A stretch of 32,000 bases of DNA from Serratia marcescens (GCA_015548865.1 JADMXW010000031.1:1-32000), one strand, 5' to 3'; counted from the first letter of the stretch, positions 1-6,204 are shown. The notes: generated from the letters alone by a model not told the origin. Numbers and translations: made by a program.

Positions 1-54
1 CCCGTGGCTGACGATGCAGACTGGTCACCCGTGGCTGACGATGCAGACTGGTTG
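1..54. repeat. 27-bp tandem direct repeat, two copies at 25/27 identity, probably continuing beyond the window
   Basis: cccgtggctgacgatgcagactggtca (1-27) and cccgtggctgacgatgcagactggttg (28-54). The repeat is in frame and encodes G(N/D)QSASSAT repeats of the - strand ORF. Confidence 0.9.
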
Positions 55-407
55 CCCTTAACATGATCGCCTTTCTTCTTGTCGCACCGCTTTGTGGTGT
101 ATTCGATTGAAGCCTTCACGATACCTGCAATTGTCAGCGCTGCTTTGATTGAAATTTTCCGGCTGGCTACCTTGCTGTCATCTTCATGCCGGGATAAATC
201 ACCTTCTTGCTCACAGGTGGCGTAAACGGACGTTCCCGGCTCGTAGTAACCGAAGCAGTCAAGCGGATACTCACACGCATGAAATCCAGATGAGCAGGCT
301 TCAACATCGCCTTTATGCTCGAAAGTCTTACCGATTTCGAACTGATACCCACGGCACTGCATGCTTGCGTTAAAGCCTTTGTAGGTAATGATTTTCTCGT
401 CGCTCAT
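1..407 (-). CDS. Hypothetical early-left protein, with its 3' end outside the window. It has a Cys/His-rich N-terminal domain followed by G-x-QSASSAT nonapeptide repeats.
   Basis: ATG at 407 (complement) with AGGAAG 5 nt upstream. The frame stays open to the window edge (135 codons: MSDEKIITYKGFNASMQCRGYQFEIGKTFEHKGDVEACSSGFHACEYPLDCFGYY...KGNQSASSATGDQSASSATG). It is missing from the ORF track because it has no stop codon in the window. Confidence 0.7.
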   Translation of the reverse strand, partial: MSDEKIITYKGFNASMQCRGYQFEIGKTFEHKGDVEACSSGFHACEYPLDCFGYYEPGTSVYATCEQEGDLSRHEDDSKVASRKISIKAALTIAGIVKASIEYTTKRCDKKKGDHVKGNQSASSATGDQSASSAT

Positions 408-432
408 AGCGGCTTCCTTAGAATTTAATCGT

Positions 433-454
433 AAAAAAAAGCCGCTATTGCGGC
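433..454 (-). terminator. Rho-independent terminator inside the PL operon
   Basis: On the - strand: GCCGC-AATA-GCGGC stem-loop followed by an 8-nt U run (A run at 433-440 on +). Confidence 0.7.
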
Positions 455-479
455 GTGGTATTCTCTGGTGTTGGCGGGG

Positions 480-713
480 TTATTCTTCTGAAATAGTGAA
501 TCCTTGACCTTCAAGCCATTTGATTACATCGCCAGTTCCGATTGCATCCAGCAAATCATCTGCGTCGTATTCAGGTACTATTTCATCAGCCTTTACTGCA
601 TCGGCTATGTCTAAATCTTCCACATCAATTTCAATGTAATTTCTGTATGGCCCAGATCCATAAGGAGCCACACCATTTAACTGCTTTGCGTTAAAAGTTC
701 CACTAACTGCCAT
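480..713 (-). CDS. Hypothetical, strongly acidic 77-aa protein
   Basis: Complete ORF. GAGG lies immediately upstream of the ATG at 713. It has 17 Asp/Glu against 4 Lys/Arg. Its start is 3 nt after the stop of the upstream basic micro-ORF. Confidence 0.7.
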   Translation of the reverse strand: MAVSGTFNAKQLNGVAPYGSGPYRNYIEIDVEDLDIADAVKADEIVPEYDADDLLDAIGTGDVIKWLEGQGFTISEE

Positions 714-716
714 ACC

Positions 717-845
717 TCACCCCTTACGCATCTTCTGATGCGACTTTTTAGCTTCTTTGCGACGAATACGCATTTCATTGCGCATGGTTGGATTTCTTAA
801 ATTGCGTACCTGAACTGGAATATAGAAATTGCCTTTATCGTTCAT
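717..845 (-). CDS. Hypothetical 42-aa highly basic peptide (MNDKGNFYIPVQVRNLRNPTMRNEMRIRRKEAKKSHQKMRKG)
   Basis: ATG at 845 with AGAAGG upstream; TGA at 717-719. It is below the ORF-track size cut-off. It has 13 Lys/Arg in 42 aa and fills the gap between flanking genes on the same strand. Confidence 0.5.
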   Translation of the reverse strand: MNDKGNFYIPVQVRNLRNPTMRNEMRIRRKEAKKSHQKMRKG

Positions 846-872
846 TGGCTACCTTCTGATGCGATGATGTAA

Positions 873-896
873 TAAAAAAGCCGCTCTAGGCGGCTT
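873..896 (-). terminator. Rho-independent terminator inside the PL operon
   Basis: On the - strand: AGCCGC-CTAGA-GCGGCT stem-loop followed by UUUUUUAUU. Confidence 0.7.
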
Positions 897-897
897 G

Positions 898-1110
898 TTA
901 ATCTTCTACAACAGCACCTTGATACCATCTCGGGAAAATAACCTTTCTTACCTTGACGGTACCAAGCCGATAGTTATCTCCAAAAATGGCCTTTCCGAAA
1001 AATTCTGATGTAGACAAGTTTCTTTTGGATACGGTCTTTAACTTACCGTTGTGATCTACCGTATCCCCCGGCTTAATTTCAGATATATGACATTCGACGA
1101 TGCGCATCAT
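898..1110 (-). CDS. Hypothetical 70-aa protein immediately downstream of N
   Basis: The track ORF 898..1203 is trimmed to ATGATG at 1110/1107, which has GAGGTGA just upstream and lies 5 nt after the N stop codon. The longer version would overlap N. Confidence 0.65.
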   Translation of the reverse strand: MMRIVECHISEIKPGDTVDHNGKLKTVSKRNLSTSEFFGKAIFGDNYRLGTVKVRKVIFPRWYQGAVVED

Positions 1111-1114
1111 CACC

Positions 1115-1396
1115 TCACTTAATAATATGCGTTGCGTCTTTACGGTTATTACGATGCCCCGCCTGATAAATGAAAACTTGAGGTAGGCACACATTGTCTG
1201 CACTGTCGTATACAGGGGTGTCTCGTACCATCAGAGCTTTATCTACGCGGTTTGTAGCCTTTCTGCTGAGCGAAAGAGTAGGGCGTAATGCCTGTTTACC
1301 TTTCGCTGAGTTAATGCCAACCAGCAGGGGATTAGCTGCTTTCCAGTCTGCCTGTTTTGCTGCGCGAGATTCACGGCGGCGTTCTTGTGCGTTCAT
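1115..1396 (-). CDS. N: Antitermination protein N (lambda N family)
   Basis: The N-terminus MNAQERRRESRAAKQADWKAANPLLVG matches the lambda N arginine-rich motif (MDAQTRRRERRAEKQAQWKAANPLLVG, from memory). AGGAGG lies 4 nt upstream. It is the first gene after PL/nutL. Confidence 0.9.
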   Translation of the reverse strand: MNAQERRRESRAAKQADWKAANPLLVGINSAKGKQALRPTLSLSRKATNRVDKALMVRDTPVYDSADNVCLPQVFIYQAGHRNNRKDATHIIK

Positions 1397-1555
1397 ACAT
1401 CCTCCTGTCAGTTAGCTTTGGTGGTGTGGTGCGGTGACCATTGTTTCGGAGCGACTTCACTCGTTTCCCGCTGGTGCTACGCTCGCTTATGGCTGTGCGC
1501 TGGTCGCTTCCAGTTGCTTTGCGCCACACCCCAAAGCCTACTGCTTTGAATGTTT

Positions 1556-1585
1556 GCGCTTCTTCAGCGCCCTATGTTAAGTGGG
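1556..1585 (-). promoter_or_regulatory. nutL: boxB hairpin plus a boxA-like element
   Basis: On the - strand, boxB is GCGCU-GAAGA-AGCGC (1570..1556), with the same GAAGA pentaloop as lambda nutL. CCCACTTAA (1585..1577) lies 6 nt upstream and matches the CGCTCTTAA of nutR at 7/9. Confidence 0.8.
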
Positions 1586-1631
1586 CTGCATTCCTTGCCC
1601 TGTTACTGCCTCAGCGTCCTGCTGTGAGGTA

Positions 1632-1660
1632 AATATACCCATAGTTATTTGATGTGTAAA
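1632..1660 (-). promoter_or_regulatory. PL early-left promoter
   Basis: On the - strand: TTTACA (1660..1655), 17-nt spacer, TATATT (1637..1632). Both hexamers are overlapped by operator repeats. It is collinear with the PR architecture. Confidence 0.6.
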
Positions 1661-1717
1661 TACCCAAAGTTATAAAATTTATGCCAATGGGTATAACCCG
1701 TTGATAGCAGTGGGTAA
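1635..1717. promoter_or_regulatory. OL operator cluster: four copies of a 14-bp quasi-palindrome ATAnCnnnnGnTAT
   Basis: Sites at 1635-1648, 1660-1673, 1681-1694 and 1704-1717, all with a TGGGTA(T/A) core. Centre-to-centre spacing is 25, 21 and 23 bp. The same motif recurs three times at OR. Confidence 0.55.
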
Positions 1718-1767
1718 ATATTTTTATTTGGTGGGGAGTCTATTTTTTATGAGTGCGGGGTTGATCT

Positions 1768-1812
1768 TTGCGTTAAGCGGTAACAATATTTATACTGTAA
1801 ATAATTACAGTA
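1768..1812 (+). promoter_or_regulatory. LexA (SOS) box overlapping a rightward sigma70 promoter
   Basis: TACTGTAAATAATTACAGTA at 1793-1812 matches the consensus TACTGTATATATATACAGTA at 17/20, with exact CTG-N10-CAG spacing. The -10 is TATACT (1791-1796) and the -35 is TTGCGT (1768-1773), with a 17-nt spacer. Confidence 0.8.
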
Positions 1813-1859
1813 TTGAAGGAAAAAAGCGAAGGGAATTCGCCTCTTGCGAGGTTTTATTG

Positions 1860-2108
1860 ATGCGCATGGCATACGTTAGAAGGAAGGGTGGAGTCTATTA
1901 TGAAATGCCTGCCGCAGCGGTTAGCAACGGCAAGGGATTTGTGATTTATTGCTTAATTAGCCGCGATATGTACACAACAACGCCAATGATTTTTGCACTT
2001 TCGCTTACTGGGATTGGTGGTATCCCTTGCGCTGCTGGGACAAGAAAGCCTAAACCTTCGCCAGGAACAAACCGGTATATTGAGGCTGATCCGTGCACTT
2101 CTGCATAG
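1860..2108 (+). CDS. Candidate 82-aa ORF downstream of the LexA-box promoter, antisense to the last 163 nt of cI (speculative antirepressor)
   Basis: ATG at 1860 with GAGG 8 nt upstream. It is the in-frame 3' part of track ORF 1701..2108. It could equally be a shadow ORF of cI. Confidence 0.25.
   Translation: MRMAYVRRKGGVYYEMPAAAVSNGKGFVIYCLISRDMYTTTPMIFALSLTGIGGIPCAAGTRKPKPSPGTNRYIEADPCTSA
1900..1944 (+). CDS. Candidate 14-codon micro-ORF (MKCLPQRLATARDL) downstream of the LexA-box promoter
   Basis: ATG at 1900 with GGAG 6 nt upstream. The TGA at 1942-1944 ends 2 nt before the cI stop codon on the opposite strand. Confidence 0.25.
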   Translation: MKCLPQRLATARDL

Positions 2109-2557
2109 ACATAATCATTGTTTTCTGGCCGCTCAATCGTGTTGACAACAATGATTGATCCACTGGTGGCGTCCGGAAACCCAGTGTCTCTATTCAGCCT
2201 GTATGCTTTGCATCGCCTTGGGTTTATCCCTTTGGGAGCGGCAACAAAGTCTTTTAGTTGCTTATCACCATCCCACAGGGAGACGAACACCACGCCATCA
2301 ACCACCGGTGACTGGGCCTCGCCATCAAACTCAGAGGTAGAATCACTTTTCATCGGGCCAATGTTCATATCTAACCATTCCGGCCTAACCCCAAGGGCCA
2401 CTGCGATTTCAACTATGTGTCCTGACTTTTGAGTCTTGCCAGAAAGGATTTTGAAAATGCTGGGCTGAGCGATGCCTGCGGCTTCTGCAAGCTGAGCTTG
2501 ATTAAAGCCTCTCATATCCATCGCTAATTTCAGTCGTTCTGCAAGTGTCGTTTTCAT
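1946..2557 (-). CDS. cI: CI-type prophage repressor: N-terminal XRE helix-turn-helix and C-terminal S24/LexA-like domain, apparently lacking the autocleavage residues
   Basis: HTH segment FNQAQLAEAAGIAQPSIFKILSGK. The C-terminal half aligns by eye to lambda CI (KAYRL..FPDATSGSIIVV..IGVVV). It is divergent from cro across three operators. Start chosen at ATG 2557 (alternative 2569; the track start at 2593 is a TTG), because the predicted PRM would give a leaderless mRNA. Confidence 0.85.
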   Translation of the reverse strand: MKTTLAERLKLAMDMRGFNQAQLAEAAGIAQPSIFKILSGKTQKSGHIVEIAVALGVRPEWLDMNIGPMKSDSTSEFDGEAQSPVVDGVVFVSLWDGDKQLKDFVAAPKGINPRRCKAYRLNRDTGFPDATSGSIIVVNTIERPENNDYVYAEVHGSASIYRFVPGEGLGFLVPAAQGIPPIPVSESAKIIGVVVYISRLIKQ

Positions 2558-2564
2558 AGCCGTG

Positions 2565-2593
2565 AACATATAGCCGTGGTTATCTAGCGTCAA
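2565..2593 (-). promoter_or_regulatory. PRM-like maintenance promoter for cI
   Basis: On the - strand: TTGACG (2593..2588), 17-nt spacer, TATGTT (2570..2565). The predicted +1 falls at or near the A of ATG 2557, giving a leaderless mRNA as for lambda cI. The -35 abuts the middle operator. Confidence 0.5.
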
Positions 2594-2632
2594 ATATCTT
2601 TGGGTATTGATTTTATTTAAACCTATGGTTAT
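2570..2632. promoter_or_regulatory. OR operator cluster: three copies of the 14-bp motif
   Basis: Sites at 2570-2583 (ATAGCCGTGGTTAT), 2594-2607 (ATATCTTTGGGTAT) and 2619-2632 (AAACCTATGGTTAT). Spacing is 24 and 25 bp. They overlap PRM, PR -35 and PR -10 respectively. Confidence 0.6.
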
Positions 2633-2635
2633 TAT
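2607..2635 (+). promoter_or_regulatory. PR early-right promoter
   Basis: TTGATT (2607-2612), 17-nt spacer, TATTAT (2630-2635). It aligns almost base for base with the PL region (cTTTGGGTATT...CTATGG(G/T)TAT). Confidence 0.65.
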
Positions 2636-2663
2636 TCTCTATGAACAAAACAAGGAACCGCTT

Positions 2664-2909
2664 ATGACCAGCAAACCCAAGATCAACCATGTTATCAAGG
2701 CTGCGATTGAGGCTGTTGGGAGCCAGAAAAAGCTGGCTGTTGAGGTGGGTGTGAGTCAGCCGAACGTCTGGTGCTGGCTTCACAATAAAAAGCGCGTATC
2801 GCCAGAGAATGTTAATGCGATTGTTGCTGCCACAAAGGGCGTGATTAAAGCACATGAAATCCGTCCTGATCTGCCTCAGCTTTTCCCTCATCCAGAGAAA
2901 GCTGCTTAG
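2664..2909 (+). CDS. cro: Cro-like transcriptional regulator (HTH, Cro/YdaS-like)
   Basis: ATG at 2664 with AAGGAA upstream. HTH segment QKKLAVEVGVSQPNVWCWL. It is the first gene of the PR operon, divergent from cI. Confidence 0.85.
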   Translation: MTSKPKINHVIKAAIEAVGSQKKLAVEVGVSQPNVWCWLHNKKRVSPENVNAIVAATKGVIKAHEIRPDLPQLFPHPEKAA

Positions 2910-2915
2910 AAATTC

Positions 2916-2946
2916 CGCTCTTAAACATCTCGCTCTGAAGAAGAGC
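2916..2946 (+). promoter_or_regulatory. nutR: boxA plus boxB
   Basis: CGCTCTTAA (2916-2924) is identical to lambda boxA. boxB is GCTCT-GAAGA-AGAGC (2932-2946). A C-rich, G-poor tract follows (2950-2975) and could be the rut site of a tR1-like terminator. Confidence 0.85.
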
Positions 2947-3013
2947 ATTACCACAAACAAACACGAACCAACGTGGCCCAGCTACGGCTTTGTCACGTCT
3001 TAACAACAGGAAA

Positions 3014-3046
3014 ATAGTACCGAATGGATAACGCAAAGACACGCAA
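3014..3046 (-). promoter_or_regulatory. PRE-like CII-activated promoter
   Basis: On the - strand: TTGC-GTGTCT-TTGC (3046..3033), then 13 nt, then TACTAT (3019..3014). This has the same geometry as lambda PRE (TTGC-N6-TTGC, 13 nt, AAGTAT). It lies inside the first codons of cII. Confidence 0.65.
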
Positions 3047-3293
3047 AGACGCTCTGAAAATAGAGAGTGCTTTGCTTAACAAAATTGCTGTGAAAGGGGT
3101 AAGCGCTATTGCTGATTTAGTGGGCGTAAATCCTTCACAGATAACCCGGTGGAAAGAGTCGCTGATACCGCGCATGAGCTTACTTCTTGCGGTGTTGGAA
3201 TGGGGAGTTAACGACGACGATCTGGCGCATCTGGCTAAGCAAGTTGCGTTACTGCTGACCAAACAATCACAGGCGGGAGAATTCGAAGCCTAG
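3024..3293 (+). CDS. cII: CII transcriptional activator
   Basis: ALKIESALLNKIA...SQITRWK...LLAVLEWGVNDDD closely matches lambda CII (ALRIESALLNKIA...SQISRWK...LLAVLEWGVVDDD, from memory). Confidence 0.9.
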   Translation: MDNAKTRKDALKIESALLNKIAVKGVSAIADLVGVNPSQITRWKESLIPRMSLLLAVLEWGVNDDDLAHLAKQVALLLTKQSQAGEFEA

Positions 3294-3302
3294 GGGGATT
3301 TC

Positions 3303-3554
3303 ATGAATCACATGGAGTTCATAGAAAAAAACGTTAGAGACACGTTATTGCGTGACGGATACACGCCATCTCTGGCGAATATCGGAGCGATGAAAGCGGT
3401 TGAGTTTTATCGCCGTTCGTCTCAGGCCAGCAAAAAGGGTCGGATATTCGATGACTGCTTACGCGAAGGAAAGCTATGGGCAGACAAAAACAAGACGGTA
3501 GCGGATGCGCCGAAGAAGCCAAGAGGTAAGCCACGAAATGGTGCTCTCTTCTGA
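3303..3554 (+). CDS. Hypothetical protein (83 aa)
   Basis: Complete ORF. GGGGGA lies upstream of the ATG, 9 nt after the cII stop. Confidence 0.65.
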   Translation: MNHMEFIEKNVRDTLLRDGYTPSLANIGAMKAVEFYRRSSQASKKGRIFDDCLREGKLWADKNKTVADAPKKPRGKPRNGALF

Positions 3555-3584
3555 AAATAAAAATCCCCACTGGCAGGTGAGGAT
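3553..3584 (-). terminator. Rho-independent terminator for the reverse-strand gene 3632..3883
   Basis: On the - strand: AUCCUCAC-CUGCCA-GUGGGGAU (8 bp including one G-U) followed by UUUUUAUUUU. On the + strand the stem has an A-C mismatch and no U tract. Confidence 0.6.
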
Positions 3585-3631
3585 TCAGGGCAAATAACAA
3601 TTACTTTTTAGCAGGTATCAAATGAAAGAAT

Positions 3632-3883
3632 TCATTGCAAGAAATGTTTGTTTTCTGGCACTACGATTTTTCCGCCCAGCTTTGTTTCGATCTCGCGGAT
3701 GGAAGACAGAAGCATTGCTGTTGCCTTTGCTTCCAGAACCACCGAAATCTCCAGAGTTATGCCTAACTCAGCAGGAACGGGATGAGGGTAGACAAGCTGT
3801 AGTCGTCCTGTATCTGGGTCGTAAGAAACCTTACTGATGATCTCTATCGGTATTACAGATGGATTTCTCTTATTTTCGCTCAT
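3632..3883 (-). CDS. Hypothetical 83-aa protein: a reverse-oriented inserted gene (moron) between the cII region and the replication genes
   Basis: ATG at 3883 with GGAG 7 nt upstream (the track ORF is trimmed from 4003). It is bracketed by - strand terminators. Confidence 0.6.
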   Translation of the reverse strand: MSENKRNPSVIPIEIISKVSYDPDTGRLQLVYPHPVPAELGITLEISVVLEAKATAMLLSSIREIETKLGGKIVVPENKHFLQ

Positions 3884-3937
3884 GAAACCACTCCATTTAA
3901 TTGTGGATTTCAAGAGTACGCCAAATTTGCAGGACGG

Positions 3938-3968
3938 AAAAAGAAAAAGCCATCGGCGGCAACCGATG
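3938..3968 (-). terminator. Rho-independent terminator, possibly the 3' end of an oop-like antisense RNA
   Basis: On the - strand: CAUCGG-UUGCCG-CCGAUG followed by GCUUUUUCUUUUU. Confidence 0.6.
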
Positions 3969-4018
3969 ACTCTCAAGTTTCGATGGATTTTTAACTGGAT
4001 CAATTCACAGGAATAAGT

Positions 4019-4213
4019 ATGTCAGCAAACATCGAAAAGGTAAATACTCACCCGACTCACAAGTGTTCATTCTGCGATAAAACCAATGACGAATTAAGGC
4101 TAATCATTGCTGGCACCGGCGTTTGCATTTGCAATGAGTGTGTCCTTATTTGCGTAGAGATTGTTTTTGATCGCTACAAAAACGGGGAGGGTGAAGATGA
4201 GCCTAGCGCATAG
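4019..4213 (+). CDS. Stand-alone ClpX-type C4 zinc-finger (zinc-binding domain) protein, 64 aa
   Basis: HKCSFCDKTNDELRLIIAGTGVCICNECVLICVEIV matches the ClpX N-terminal domain ([35 protein letters not shown], from memory). There is no AAA+ module. Confidence 0.8.
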   Translation: MSANIEKVNTHPTHKCSFCDKTNDELRLIIAGTGVCICNECVLICVEIVFDRYKNGEGEDEPSA

Positions 4214-4979
4214 AAAAATATCACCTATCAGACCTGATTTGCAGGTCGTGGAGCCTCGCGTGGTTGATCTCGAAGATGGTTACACGCGAACTGCTAACGA
4301 ATTGCTTGAGGCCGTGATGTTATCCGGCTTGACGCAACACCAATTGCTGATTGTTATTGCCGTATGGAGAAAGACATACGGCTACAACAAGAAAATGGAC
4401 TGGATCGGCAATGAGCAGTTCGAAGCACTTACAGGGATGGCTGCAACAAAATGCTCTACAGCGAAAAACGAGTTAATCAGGATGGGAGTCCTTGTACAGC
4501 AAGGGCGACAGGTAGGAATGAATAAGGCCGTTTCTGAGTGGAAAACTAAGTTTAACGGATTCGGTAAAACCTTTACTGATTCGGTAAAGAAAAACTTTCC
4601 TGAATCGGTAAAAAGTGATTTACCGAAACGGTCAAACACAAAAGACAATATTACAAAAGACAATAAAGACATTAAAAATATAGGGAGTGACGACCCGAAA
4701 AAATCCCCCAAAAAGGAGAAAAAGGCGACGCAGCGATCACCTAATTTCTCCCCATCCGCAAAGCATGAATCTCTGGCCTATGAGTTAGGAGTTAACCTGC
4801 AAAACGAGTTTTTGAAGTTTGTCGATTACCACGACTCAAAGGGAACCACTTTCAAGAATTGGGATGCTGCTTTGAACATGTGGCTGCGCAACGCAGTCAG
4901 GTACAGCAAACCAACTGTGAGAGGTGTTTCCCGACCTAGCCAACCAATGAACCACATACCGGAGGGCTTCACAGGATGA
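4197..4979 (+). CDS. O: Replication initiator, lambda O-like (Phage_rep_O N-terminal domain)
   Basis: ATG at 4197 with GGAGGG upstream (the track start at 4161 is a TTG). Signature GYTRTANELLEAVMLSGLTQHQLLIVIAVWRKTYGYNKKMDWI. It contains the iteron origin internally, as lambda O does. Confidence 0.85.
   Translation: MSLAHRKISPIRPDLQVVEPRVVDLEDGYTRTANELLEAVMLSGLTQHQLLIVIAVWRKTYGYNKKMDWIGNEQFEALTGMAATKCSTAKNELIRMGVLVQQGRQVGMNKAVSEWKTKFNGFGKTFTDSVKKNFPESVKSDLPKRSNTKDNITKDNKDIKNIGSDDPKKSPKKEKKATQRSPNFSPSAKHESLAYELGVNLQNEFLKFVDYHDSKGTTFKNWDAALNMWLRNAVRYSKPTVRGVSRPSQPMNHIPEGFTG
4558..4680. repeat. Probable origin of replication inside the O gene: four iterons plus an AT-rich tract
   Basis: GATTCGGTAAA at 4558-4568 and 4578-4588; GAATCGGTAAA at 4602-4612; inverted TTTACCGAAAC at 4619-4629. 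An A/T-rich region follows at 4631-4680, containing a 13-bp direct repeat ACAAAAGACAATA (4638-4650 and 4653-4665). Confidence 0.7.
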
Positions 4980-5710
4980 GCGATTTAATTCGACGCCTAC
5001 AGGCTGCCATGCCTCCGGGCATCAAGCCAAAGTTCACGACGCCGGAAGAATGGGTGGAGTGGCAGAAGGAGCAGGGCCGGAAGGATTCGGAGCGCATTGC
5101 AGAGCAGAACCGCATTACCCGGCTGCAAAAAGTCCTCGGGCGATCTGGAATTCAGGAGCTTCACCGCACTTGCACATTCCAGAATTACAACGCTGAATTA
5201 CCGGGGCAACGTAATGCGCTGGATAAAGCCAAGCAGTATGCGAACCAGTTCGGCGGAGGGTTTGGTGGGTTCATTTTCAGCGGCGGTTGTGGCACTGGGA
5301 AAAACCATCTGGCGGCGGCTATCGGTAATCACCTGCTGGCGAAAAACAAATCCGTGCTGGTTGTCACCGTGCCCGACCTGATGATGCGATTTCGTGAAAC
5401 CTATCAGGACGGTGCGAAGCTGTCAGAGCATGACCTGATGAGCGACCTGTGCAACGTTGATCTGCTGATTCTGGACGATATCGGTGTGCAGCGCGGCAAC
5501 AAAAACGAGGAGGTAGTGCTGTTCCAAATCGTTGATCGCCGCCTGTCTGCAAAGAAGCCTGTGGGGATGCTAACAAACCTCAACGTTGAGCAATTAACCG
5601 AGCTACTTACCGAGCGAATCATGGACAGAATGCGAATGGACGGCGGCATGTGGGTAAATTTCGACTGGCCCAGCTATCGGAAAAATGTCCGGTCAAATCA
5701 GGGGGAGTAG
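4976..5710 (+). CDS. dnaC: DnaC-like helicase loader (AAA+ ATPase)
   Basis: GRSGIQELHRTCTFQNY...FIFSGGCGTGKNHLAAAIGNHLL...DLLILDDIGVQ...MLTNLN is close to E. coli DnaC. Its start forms an ATGA overlap with the O stop. Confidence 0.9.
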   Translation: MSDLIRRLQAAMPPGIKPKFTTPEEWVEWQKEQGRKDSERIAEQNRITRLQKVLGRSGIQELHRTCTFQNYNAELPGQRNALDKAKQYANQFGGGFGGFIFSGGCGTGKNHLAAAIGNHLLAKNKSVLVVTVPDLMMRFRETYQDGAKLSEHDLMSDLCNVDLLILDDIGVQRGNKNEEVVLFQIVDRRLSAKKPVGMLTNLNVEQLTELLTERIMDRMRMDGGMWVNFDWPSYRKNVRSNQGE

Positions 5711-5971
5711 ATGGAAATAATTAAATTACATCAGGTATGCCGAATTCACGCAGCAGGAAACAATGGCGAAGAGCGCATAGAGTGGGAGCCGATTTATATT
5801 CAGGTTAGCCATATAGAGTCTTTTTTCTCTGCTGGTCGAACGGTAATAGAACTCGCCAGCGGTCGCAGAATTGAAGTTAAAGAGACGCCGGAATATATAA
5901 CGTCGCATATGCCGTGTGACGTTTTCAACAACGTGCGACCGATAGATGACATCGAATGGCGTCCACTTTGA
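5711..5971 (+). CDS. Hypothetical protein (86 aa)
   Basis: Complete ORF starting 1 nt after the dnaC-like stop, with GGGGGAG upstream. Confidence 0.65.
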   Translation: MEIIKLHQVCRIHAAGNNGEERIEWEPIYIQVSHIESFFSAGRTVIELASGRRIEVKETPEYITSHMPCDVFNNVRPIDDIEWRPL

Positions 5972-6204
5972 TGGGGGGGAGTAGAACAGTGAAAGTAAAA
6001 ACTAGCGAGTTGACCGCAAAGCAGCGTGAATATTTATCGAAAATGCAGCGCGGTGGAACGCCAACGAAGAAACCGAATGACCGCACGATGAAATCACTAT
6101 CGGCAAAAGGGCTGGTGAAGTATGCGTTTTTCGTCGGCTGGCATATCACGGCAGAAGGGCTGAGCATCGAACTCCTGGAGGGATTAGCTAATGGGCTGGA
6201 TTAA
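5971..6204 (+). CDS. Hypothetical protein (about 72-77 aa)
   Basis: ATG at 5971 overlaps the upstream stop (TGATG). An alternative start is GTG 5989, with GGGGGAG 7 nt upstream; the track start is 5956. Confidence 0.6.
   Translation: MGGSRTVKVKTSELTAKQREYLSKMQRGGTPTKKPNDRTMKSLSAKGLVKYAFFVGWHITAEGLSIELLEGLANGLD

Follow-up and report, generated by a model that had tools for sequence, protein, structure and literature searches.

Lemire et al. (2011, PMC3121763) described GfoA, GftA, GfhA, and FsoA of the Gifsy-1, Gifsy-2, Gifsy-3, and Fels-1 prophages as antirepressors, small proteins placed under direct LexA control in prophages whose repressors are non-cleavable. The Gifsy genes belong to a LexA-controlled dinI-antirepressor-irsA operon located approximately 1.3 kb downstream of the replication genes, with LexA boxes that are preceded by terminator-like palindromes, and the Gifsy repressors were described as much shorter than those of lambda and P22 (PMC3121763). 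In phage 186, the prophage repressor is likewise not the direct sensor of the SOS response. The -10 of its p95 promoter is overlapped by a LexA box (the annotated -10, TACTGT, being part of the box), tum begins 19 nt after the box, and the encoded Tum is a protein of 146 aa with a DinI-like half. AntC of phage N15, as far as it is described in the work of Mardanov and Ravin (2007, cited in PMC8044961), is an antirepressor under LexA control that brings about repressor inactivation in a linear plasmid prophage. Qtip of VP882 and the products of the TF-smORF modules (PMC10432266, PMC11323111) are very small, mutually non-homologous proteins that inactivate cI; their genes are neighbours of cI in linear plasmid-like phages, frequently escape annotation, and are under the control of a phage transcription factor or of quorum sensing.

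The window, by which is meant the whole 32-kb stretch of DNA analysed here, starts with the immunity region of a lambdoid phage (Table 1), and a module consisting of a LexA box and a small gene sits in the approximately 220 bp that separate OL from the end of cI. Lambda holds rexAB at this place. The rexAB/sieB slot is comparable in its position between cI and OL and has a similar convergent, overlapping geometry, but it differs in content, rexAB being co-transcribed with cI and not under SOS control. The sequence-only reading that preceded this analysis had proposed a LexA-box promoter that is convergent on a non-cleavable cI, with a small antirepressor from the 82-codon ORF as one of three possible products. 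The comparisons reported below bear this arrangement out, given that the box, its orientation, and the open reading frame (ORF) are conserved, that the ORF is under protein-level selection, and that the module is found only beside a catalytically deficient cI family.

Table 1. Features of the immunity region, in coordinates of the window.
Feature	Position	Strand	Basis or remark
N-type antiterminator gene	1115-1396	-	Pfam N36 match
pL, TTTACA-17-TATATT	1660..1632	-	promoter scan; left edge of slot
OL operators, 3 copies	1635-1648, 1660-1673, 1681-1694		operator search
Terminator-like hairpin and T tract	1696..1725 (hairpin 1696-1715)	+	just 5' of the LexA-controlled promoter
Candidate small-gene promoter region	1761..1796	+	predicted start ~1797-1804, inside LexA box
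LexA (SOS) box TACTGTAAATAATTACAGTA	1793..1812	palindrome	consensus match and conservation
Hairpin GCGAAuucccUUCGC plus U6 tract (cI strand)	1820..1845	-	folding z -2.3
Shine-Dalgarno GAGG	1848..1851	+	8 nt before ATG of the 82-codon ORF
Small gene, 82 codons, candidate antirepressor	1860..2108	+	ORF and comparative evidence
Hairpin directly 3' of the cI stop, within the small-gene coding region	1908..1934	-	folding z -2.5
cI-type repressor, HTH_3 and degenerate S24-like domain	1946..2557	-	Pfam; stop codon 1946-1948
OR operators	2570-2583, 2594-2607, 2619-2632		region 2565..2635 also holding pRM (-) and pR (+)
cro	2664-2909	+	same direction as the LexA-controlled transcript
cII	3024-3293		Pfam

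The likeness to Gifsy-type prophages suggested by that reading holds for the logic, namely a non-cleavable repressor and a small (here candidate) antirepressor under direct LexA control, and does not extend to the layout. Their dinI operon lies far from the repressor, whereas the small gene of the window is convergent with cI and overlaps it; no dinI is present in the module between cI and OL; and the Gifsy repressors are short, whereas the CI of the window keeps a degenerate S24-like domain. The Gifsy proteins are set apart here by layout and description rather than by sequence. The p95-tum region of 186 is similar to the window in the overlap of the LexA box with the promoter -10, in the Shine-Dalgarno sequence and start codon following tens of nucleotides further on, and in having a repressor that is not itself the SOS sensor. 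It differs in that tum is located at the far end of the genome, not beside cI, and without overlap of the repressor gene, and the 146 residues of Tum stand against 82 for the window protein. Comparison of a 14-sequence profile of the small protein with Tum by hhalign returned a probability of 0.1%, i.e., no homology, and membership of the small protein in the Tum family is not supported by sequence comparison. N15 AntC, which was compared by description, would share with the window the LexA control and the inactivation of a repressor, yet belongs to another locus and another phage type. Qtip and the TF-smORF proteins share with the window protein the small size and the neighbourhood of cI, but neither depend on LexA nor overlap cI. 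The open-access literature searched (subscription journals not being covered) yielded no report of a gene under LexA control that runs convergently to cI. On the best reading of these sequence comparisons, the LexA-controlled antirepressor logic is known, while the small-protein family and the arrangement in which its gene overlaps that of its repressor would be new.

The LexA box claimed at 1793-1812 is present there and matches the consensus at 17 of 20 positions. It is the only CTGT-N8-ACAG in the 32 kb, where 0.43 occurrences of this core are expected by chance. Scored with a rough, approximate LexA weight matrix built from E. coli boxes, the box reaches 23.1 bits, above the median of the training sites, with the next-best site in the 32 kb at 13.0 bits and none of 200 block shuffles attaining 23.1 bits. 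The matrix scan found the window to be otherwise free of strong LexA sites, and an operator search found no cI operator near the small-gene promoter. As in the known LexA-repressed antirepressor modules, where this is a feature of membership, the box overlaps the -10/start region of the promoter, and we infer that it would be occupied by LexA in vivo.

The promoter assigned to the box, TTGCGT (1768-1773) and TATACT (1791-1796) separated by 17 nt, does exist, but its designation as a good promoter was overstated, the match to consensus being 8 of 12. It is overlapped by a second, conserved candidate with a -35 of TTGATC (1761-1766) and, after 17 nt, a -10 of CAATAT (1784-1789). Neither candidate of the window is listed by a consensus promoter scan at a threshold of 9/12, and with either choice the predicted transcript start falls inside the LexA box. 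Across the related lineages, the -35 is conserved as TTGAT(A/C/T) and the -10 ends between 7 nt before the box and 4 nt inside it; the consensus scan lists TTGATA-17-AAAAAT in Photorhabdus. As the box is palindromic and the minus strand around it can be read as TTCAAT-17-TATAAA, the site might be thought to control leftward transcription to pL and N, or to be a chance palindrome accompanied by a spurious antisense frame, wobble-aligned antisense frames being naturally poor in stops (0.03 per codon). Both proposals are very improbable indeed. The best sigma-70 match around the box faces the small gene in 12 of 13 lineages, the leftward matches being weaker in 12 of the 13 and not conserved, and a leftward LexA-controlled promoter was rejected on these grounds. 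Against chance stand the shuffles, the conservation of box and ORF across genera, and the location of the invariant residues of the ORF outside the overlap with cI.

The terminator-like hairpin at 1696..1725 probably shields the small gene against transcription entering from upstream, and an equivalent hairpin is found 5' of the promoter in one related locus (L019). The hairpin GCGAA-GGGAA-TTCGC (1826-1840) and U-rich tract that had been assigned to the rightward transcript are present, but a cI terminator on the opposite strand is the better explanation for them: folding of the plus-strand leader (1797-1875) is on a par with shuffles (z -0.18), whereas the minus strand has this hairpin with U6 behind it, in the manner of a terminator for cI. 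Judged from their folding, both minus-strand hairpins of Table 1 resemble terminators for cI transcription, with that at 1820..1845 as the likely distal one. The cI mRNA would then end within or past the 5' portion of the small gene, which should give it at least 100 nt of overlap with the LexA-controlled RNA. No plus-strand terminator is predicted between 1852 and 2800, and for this reason the putative LexA-controlled transcript is expected to meet transcription from pRM, to pair with the cI mRNA, and maybe to reach cro. An Rfam search of 1-6000 (E <= 1) gave no match.

Several other observations were made in and around the immunity region. The protein in the Cro position (2664-2909, plus strand) matches Pfam YdaS_toxin (E 1.6e-18) better than P22_Cro, and we take it to be a Cro-like regulator of the Rac-prophage YdaS type. 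The cI ATG at 2557 is situated approximately 7 nt past the predicted pRM -10 (2570-2565), and the cI mRNA is on that account probably leaderless, as in lambda. A tandem duplication of 25-26 bp, with CCCGTGGCTGACGATGCAGACTGGT present twice, occupies positions 1-52 of the window. A stand-alone ClpX C4 zinc-finger protein of 64 aa (PF06689, E 4.9e-13) is encoded at 4019-4213 on the plus strand, directly 5' of the gene for replication protein O (4197-4979), which it slightly overlaps. Lambda O is a substrate of ClpXP, and the zinc-finger protein could for this reason serve the phage as a ClpX inhibitor or decoy. The weak LexA-like site AACTGGATCAATTCACAGGA (3993-4012) that precedes this ORF was considered as a second LexA site and rejected, as its 13 bits are within the range of the shuffles.

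The claim that the cI of the window is without recognisable autocleavage residues is upheld by alignment, Pfam coverage, and family comparison. In alignments with lambda cI and LexA, from which the catalytic residues were judged, the Ser nucleophile motif (G-x-S-M) proves to be deleted in the window cI family, an Ala-Gly site is missing, and the position of LexA Lys156 (K156) is occupied by an invariant Tyr in the window cI and its 31 relatives, none of which (0/31) has G-x-S-M. The Pfam Peptidase_S24 match is weak and partial, covering profile positions 49-116, the second half of the model. The window cI has thus neither the Ser-Lys dyad nor the Ala-Gly site that characterise self-cleaving S24 repressors, and on this sequence evidence the CI repressor cannot be expected to cleave itself.

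The DNA has no close relative among the sequenced phages and E. coli genomes with which 1400-2600 and 1600-2000 were compared by megablast and blastn (no match), and relatives were therefore sought with the repressor protein. In IMG/VR, 19 loci with cI relatives of 42-54% identity were retrieved, and 18 of them carry a strong LexA box approximately 110-135 nt past the cI stop (e.g., TACTGTATATAAGTACAGTA). A set of one-genome-per-species contigs gave ten full-length cI relatives (36-52% identity) from Symbiopectobacterium, an Erwiniaceae bacterium, Yersinia pekkanenii, Photorhabdus, and Xenorhabdus, with CTGT-N8-ACAG at 60-132 nt past the cI stop in nine of the ten. The site is also present in both types of annotated phage, Flyfo siphovirus Tbat2_3 and the Yersinia phages vB_YenM_21.09 / 06.16-1. 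Altogether, 30 of 32 loci, window included, have a LexA site beyond the cI stop at a distance of 60-150 nt, at cI identities to the window of about 36-56%, and the convergent ORF is kept in 29 of the 32. The same genome scan provided 49 comparison loci whose repressors share the N-terminal DNA-binding domain only; G-x-S-M is present in 37 of these, and within 400 nt downstream of the 49 repressor genes not one LexA-like site was found (0/49). In the loci compared, the LexA site is tied exclusively to the cI family without catalytic residues, and the conservation of box and ORF in 29-30 of 32 loci is the main evidence against chance.

A few of the related loci depart from the common arrangement. 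In L004 (4600-4800), the small ORF and a TTGATT-17-CAATAT promoter are kept and the LexA box is lost; among the Xenorhabdus loci, L029 has a premature stop after 12 codons, L030 a box broken by an insertion, and L025 an N-terminal deletion. Such decay would fit prophages that have lost inducibility.

The 82-codon ORF had been placed at 1860-2108, with GAGG 8 nt upstream and an overlap of 163 nt with cI, and each of these elements is found. Codons 1-29 are situated in the spacer, and from approximately codon 30 onwards the gene is antisense to the C-terminus of cI, with the wobble positions of the two genes aligned. The ORF occupies the same antisense register in every IMG/VR locus, in 7 of the 10 genome loci, and in both annotated phages. 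Its start codon is fixed at 36-37 codons before a conserved antisense 'YTTTP' in close relatives, and a Shine-Dalgarno sequence lies 5-9 nt before the start in every lineage. Among 14 divergent members (24-47% identity), M1, R7, G11, and Y13 are invariant, all four in the part of the ORF outside the cI overlap. The invariant Arg is written with all six of its codons (AGA, AGG, CGT, CGC, CGG, and CGA), the invariant Gly with GGA, GGG, and GGC, and the invariant Tyr with TAT and TAC, a pattern expected from nothing other than selection on the protein. The frame of the small ORF alone is free of stops in all lineages, the other five frames of the spacer accumulating 13-32 stops in total. Polymorphism within closely related groups is distributed over the three codon positions as 4/5/11, a weak third-position bias with too few sites for significance.

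Within the overlap, the constraint can be traced on cI itself. The most conserved block of the cI family, K-I-I-G-V-V-V-Y (window 1968-1985, cI codons 195-199), is the antisense of M-Y-T-T-T-P-M-I of the small protein. The cI codon before the invariant Tyr199 is GTG, GTA, or ATA and ends in a purine in 12 of 12 lineages, a purine being needed because a pyrimidine at this wobble position gives an antisense TAA or TAG; the neighbouring two Val/Ile codons have T or C as third base in 12/13 and 11/13 lineages. The antisense frame runs without a stop for 27-53 codons in each of the 14 lineages, the antisense stop frequency in the rest of cI being 0.03 per codon. Read from these alignments, the purine wobble is the mark left by the hidden gene at a synonymous position of cI, and the 82-codon ORF is, by the same comparative evidence, a selected protein-coding gene.

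Two other products were considered and set aside. The 14-codon ORF at 1900-1944, offered as an alternative product, is present in the DNA but owes its existence, as a by-product, to the conserved Gly-x-Tyr-Glu codons in the main ORF, as its ATG arises from the conserved Tyr-Glu (TAT GAA) and its Shine-Dalgarno-like GGAG from the Gly codons; the equivalent mini-ORFs of other loci have 8-14 codons and unrelated sequences. A 119-aa version starting at 1749 (the gene-caller product, P0001) contains the promoter, and relatives have stops in that part.

The profile and structure searches proposed for the 82-codon product were productive in part. No known family emerged, a profile search of the small protein against Pfam, PHROGs, NCBIfam, and PDB giving nothing meaningful, and a single-sequence AlphaFold model is unusable (pLDDT 42). 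A word-indexed protein search combined with HMMER against 1.84 billion representatives did retrieve five family members (P0001, P0003, P0006, P0010, and P0011) in addition to spurious repeat proteins; these five are unnamed or called 'hypothetical', and a cluster look-up of them yielded no names. In the sequenced phages that carry it, the small gene is unannotated, gene callers missing it because it is antisense to cI.

Taken as a whole, the evidence argues for the small protein being a LexA-repressed antirepressor that inactivates the linked non-cleavable CI and so serves as its SOS input module, an account that we hold to be probable, if some way from assured. In a lysogen, host LexA on 1793-1812 would block the rightward sigma-70 promoter (1761-1796); upon DNA damage, LexA would be cleaved and the promoter would fire, the 82-residue protein would then be made from 1860-2108, and by binding and inactivating the neighbouring CI it would release pL and pR. 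The antirepressor activity assumed here, CI binding included, is proposed from the genomic setting. The transcript would continue antisense through cI towards pRM and cro, and convergent transcription or antisense pairing would probably lower cI expression as well, with read-through into cro possible. This lowering of cI expression is probably a second layer and not the main one, and it is ranked second because the coding constraints are strong.

The same geometry would also suit a switch that works by RNA or transcription only, through interference with pRM, antisense pairing with the 3' part of the cI mRNA, and read-through into cro, with a dispensable peptide. The promoter and pRM point at each other from either side of cI, cro is further along the rightward path, and the expected overlap of the two RNAs and the plus strand clear of predicted terminators as far as 2800 would serve such a switch well. 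A transcript acting alone would, however, carry no selected coding capacity, whereas the ORF is under protein-level selection, with an Arg drawn from both of its codon families; the conserved start codon and Shine-Dalgarno sequence would be left unexplained; the synonymous-site constraint in cI precisely avoids antisense stops; and the plus-strand leader is without significant structure and without an Rfam match. We consider an RNA-only switch decidedly improbable, and the convergent geometry leaves room for an RNA contribution beside the protein.

It is also conceivable, though unlikely, that the small gene is real and SOS-induced but has another job in the rex/sieB slot, for instance as an exclusion factor, a toxin, or a DinI-like modulator of RecA or LexA. 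In lambda and related phages the interval from cI to OL houses accessory genes, no homology of the protein to known antirepressors was found, and 32 kb of phage is in view, so that another induction route could be located outside the window. An accessory function of this kind sits poorly with the strict linkage of the module to the non-catalytic repressor family and its absence beside catalytic relatives, with the overlap of the gene with the repressor gene in every lineage, with the want of a further strong LexA site in the window, and with the small protein being devoid of hydrophobic segments like those of small membrane toxins.

An extension of the antirepressor account makes the overlap itself part of the mechanism, and this we regard as rather doubtful. 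The antirepressor and the C-terminal domain that is its target would be encoded on opposite strands of the same DNA, so that their specificity could not be separated by recombination and the two would co-evolve as one immunity cassette. The SOS switch would then operate at three levels, in that the protein would inactivate existing CI, convergent or antisense RNA would stop cI synthesis from pRM, and read-through would pass OR into cro. If true, no lambdoid phage described so far would have an SOS switch of this committed kind.

The small protein adds an unannotated family to the protein repertoire, with a handful of calls among billions of proteins. The gene and cI are a clear example of antisense overlapping genes kept by selection, in which the footprint of one partner is visible on a synonymous site of the other, and the overlap provides a genetic handle, since one base change can be silent in cI and yet introduce a stop into the small gene. 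One such change is C1973A, which turns GTG into GTT in cI and Tyr38 of the small gene into TAA. The proposed antirepressor module would, if true, explain how widespread temperate phages of the Enterobacterales sense DNA damage with a CI-type repressor that has no catalytic residues, examples being those of Yersinia, Photorhabdus, Xenorhabdus, Symbiopectobacterium, and Erwiniaceae and lambdoid phages of enteric bacteria.
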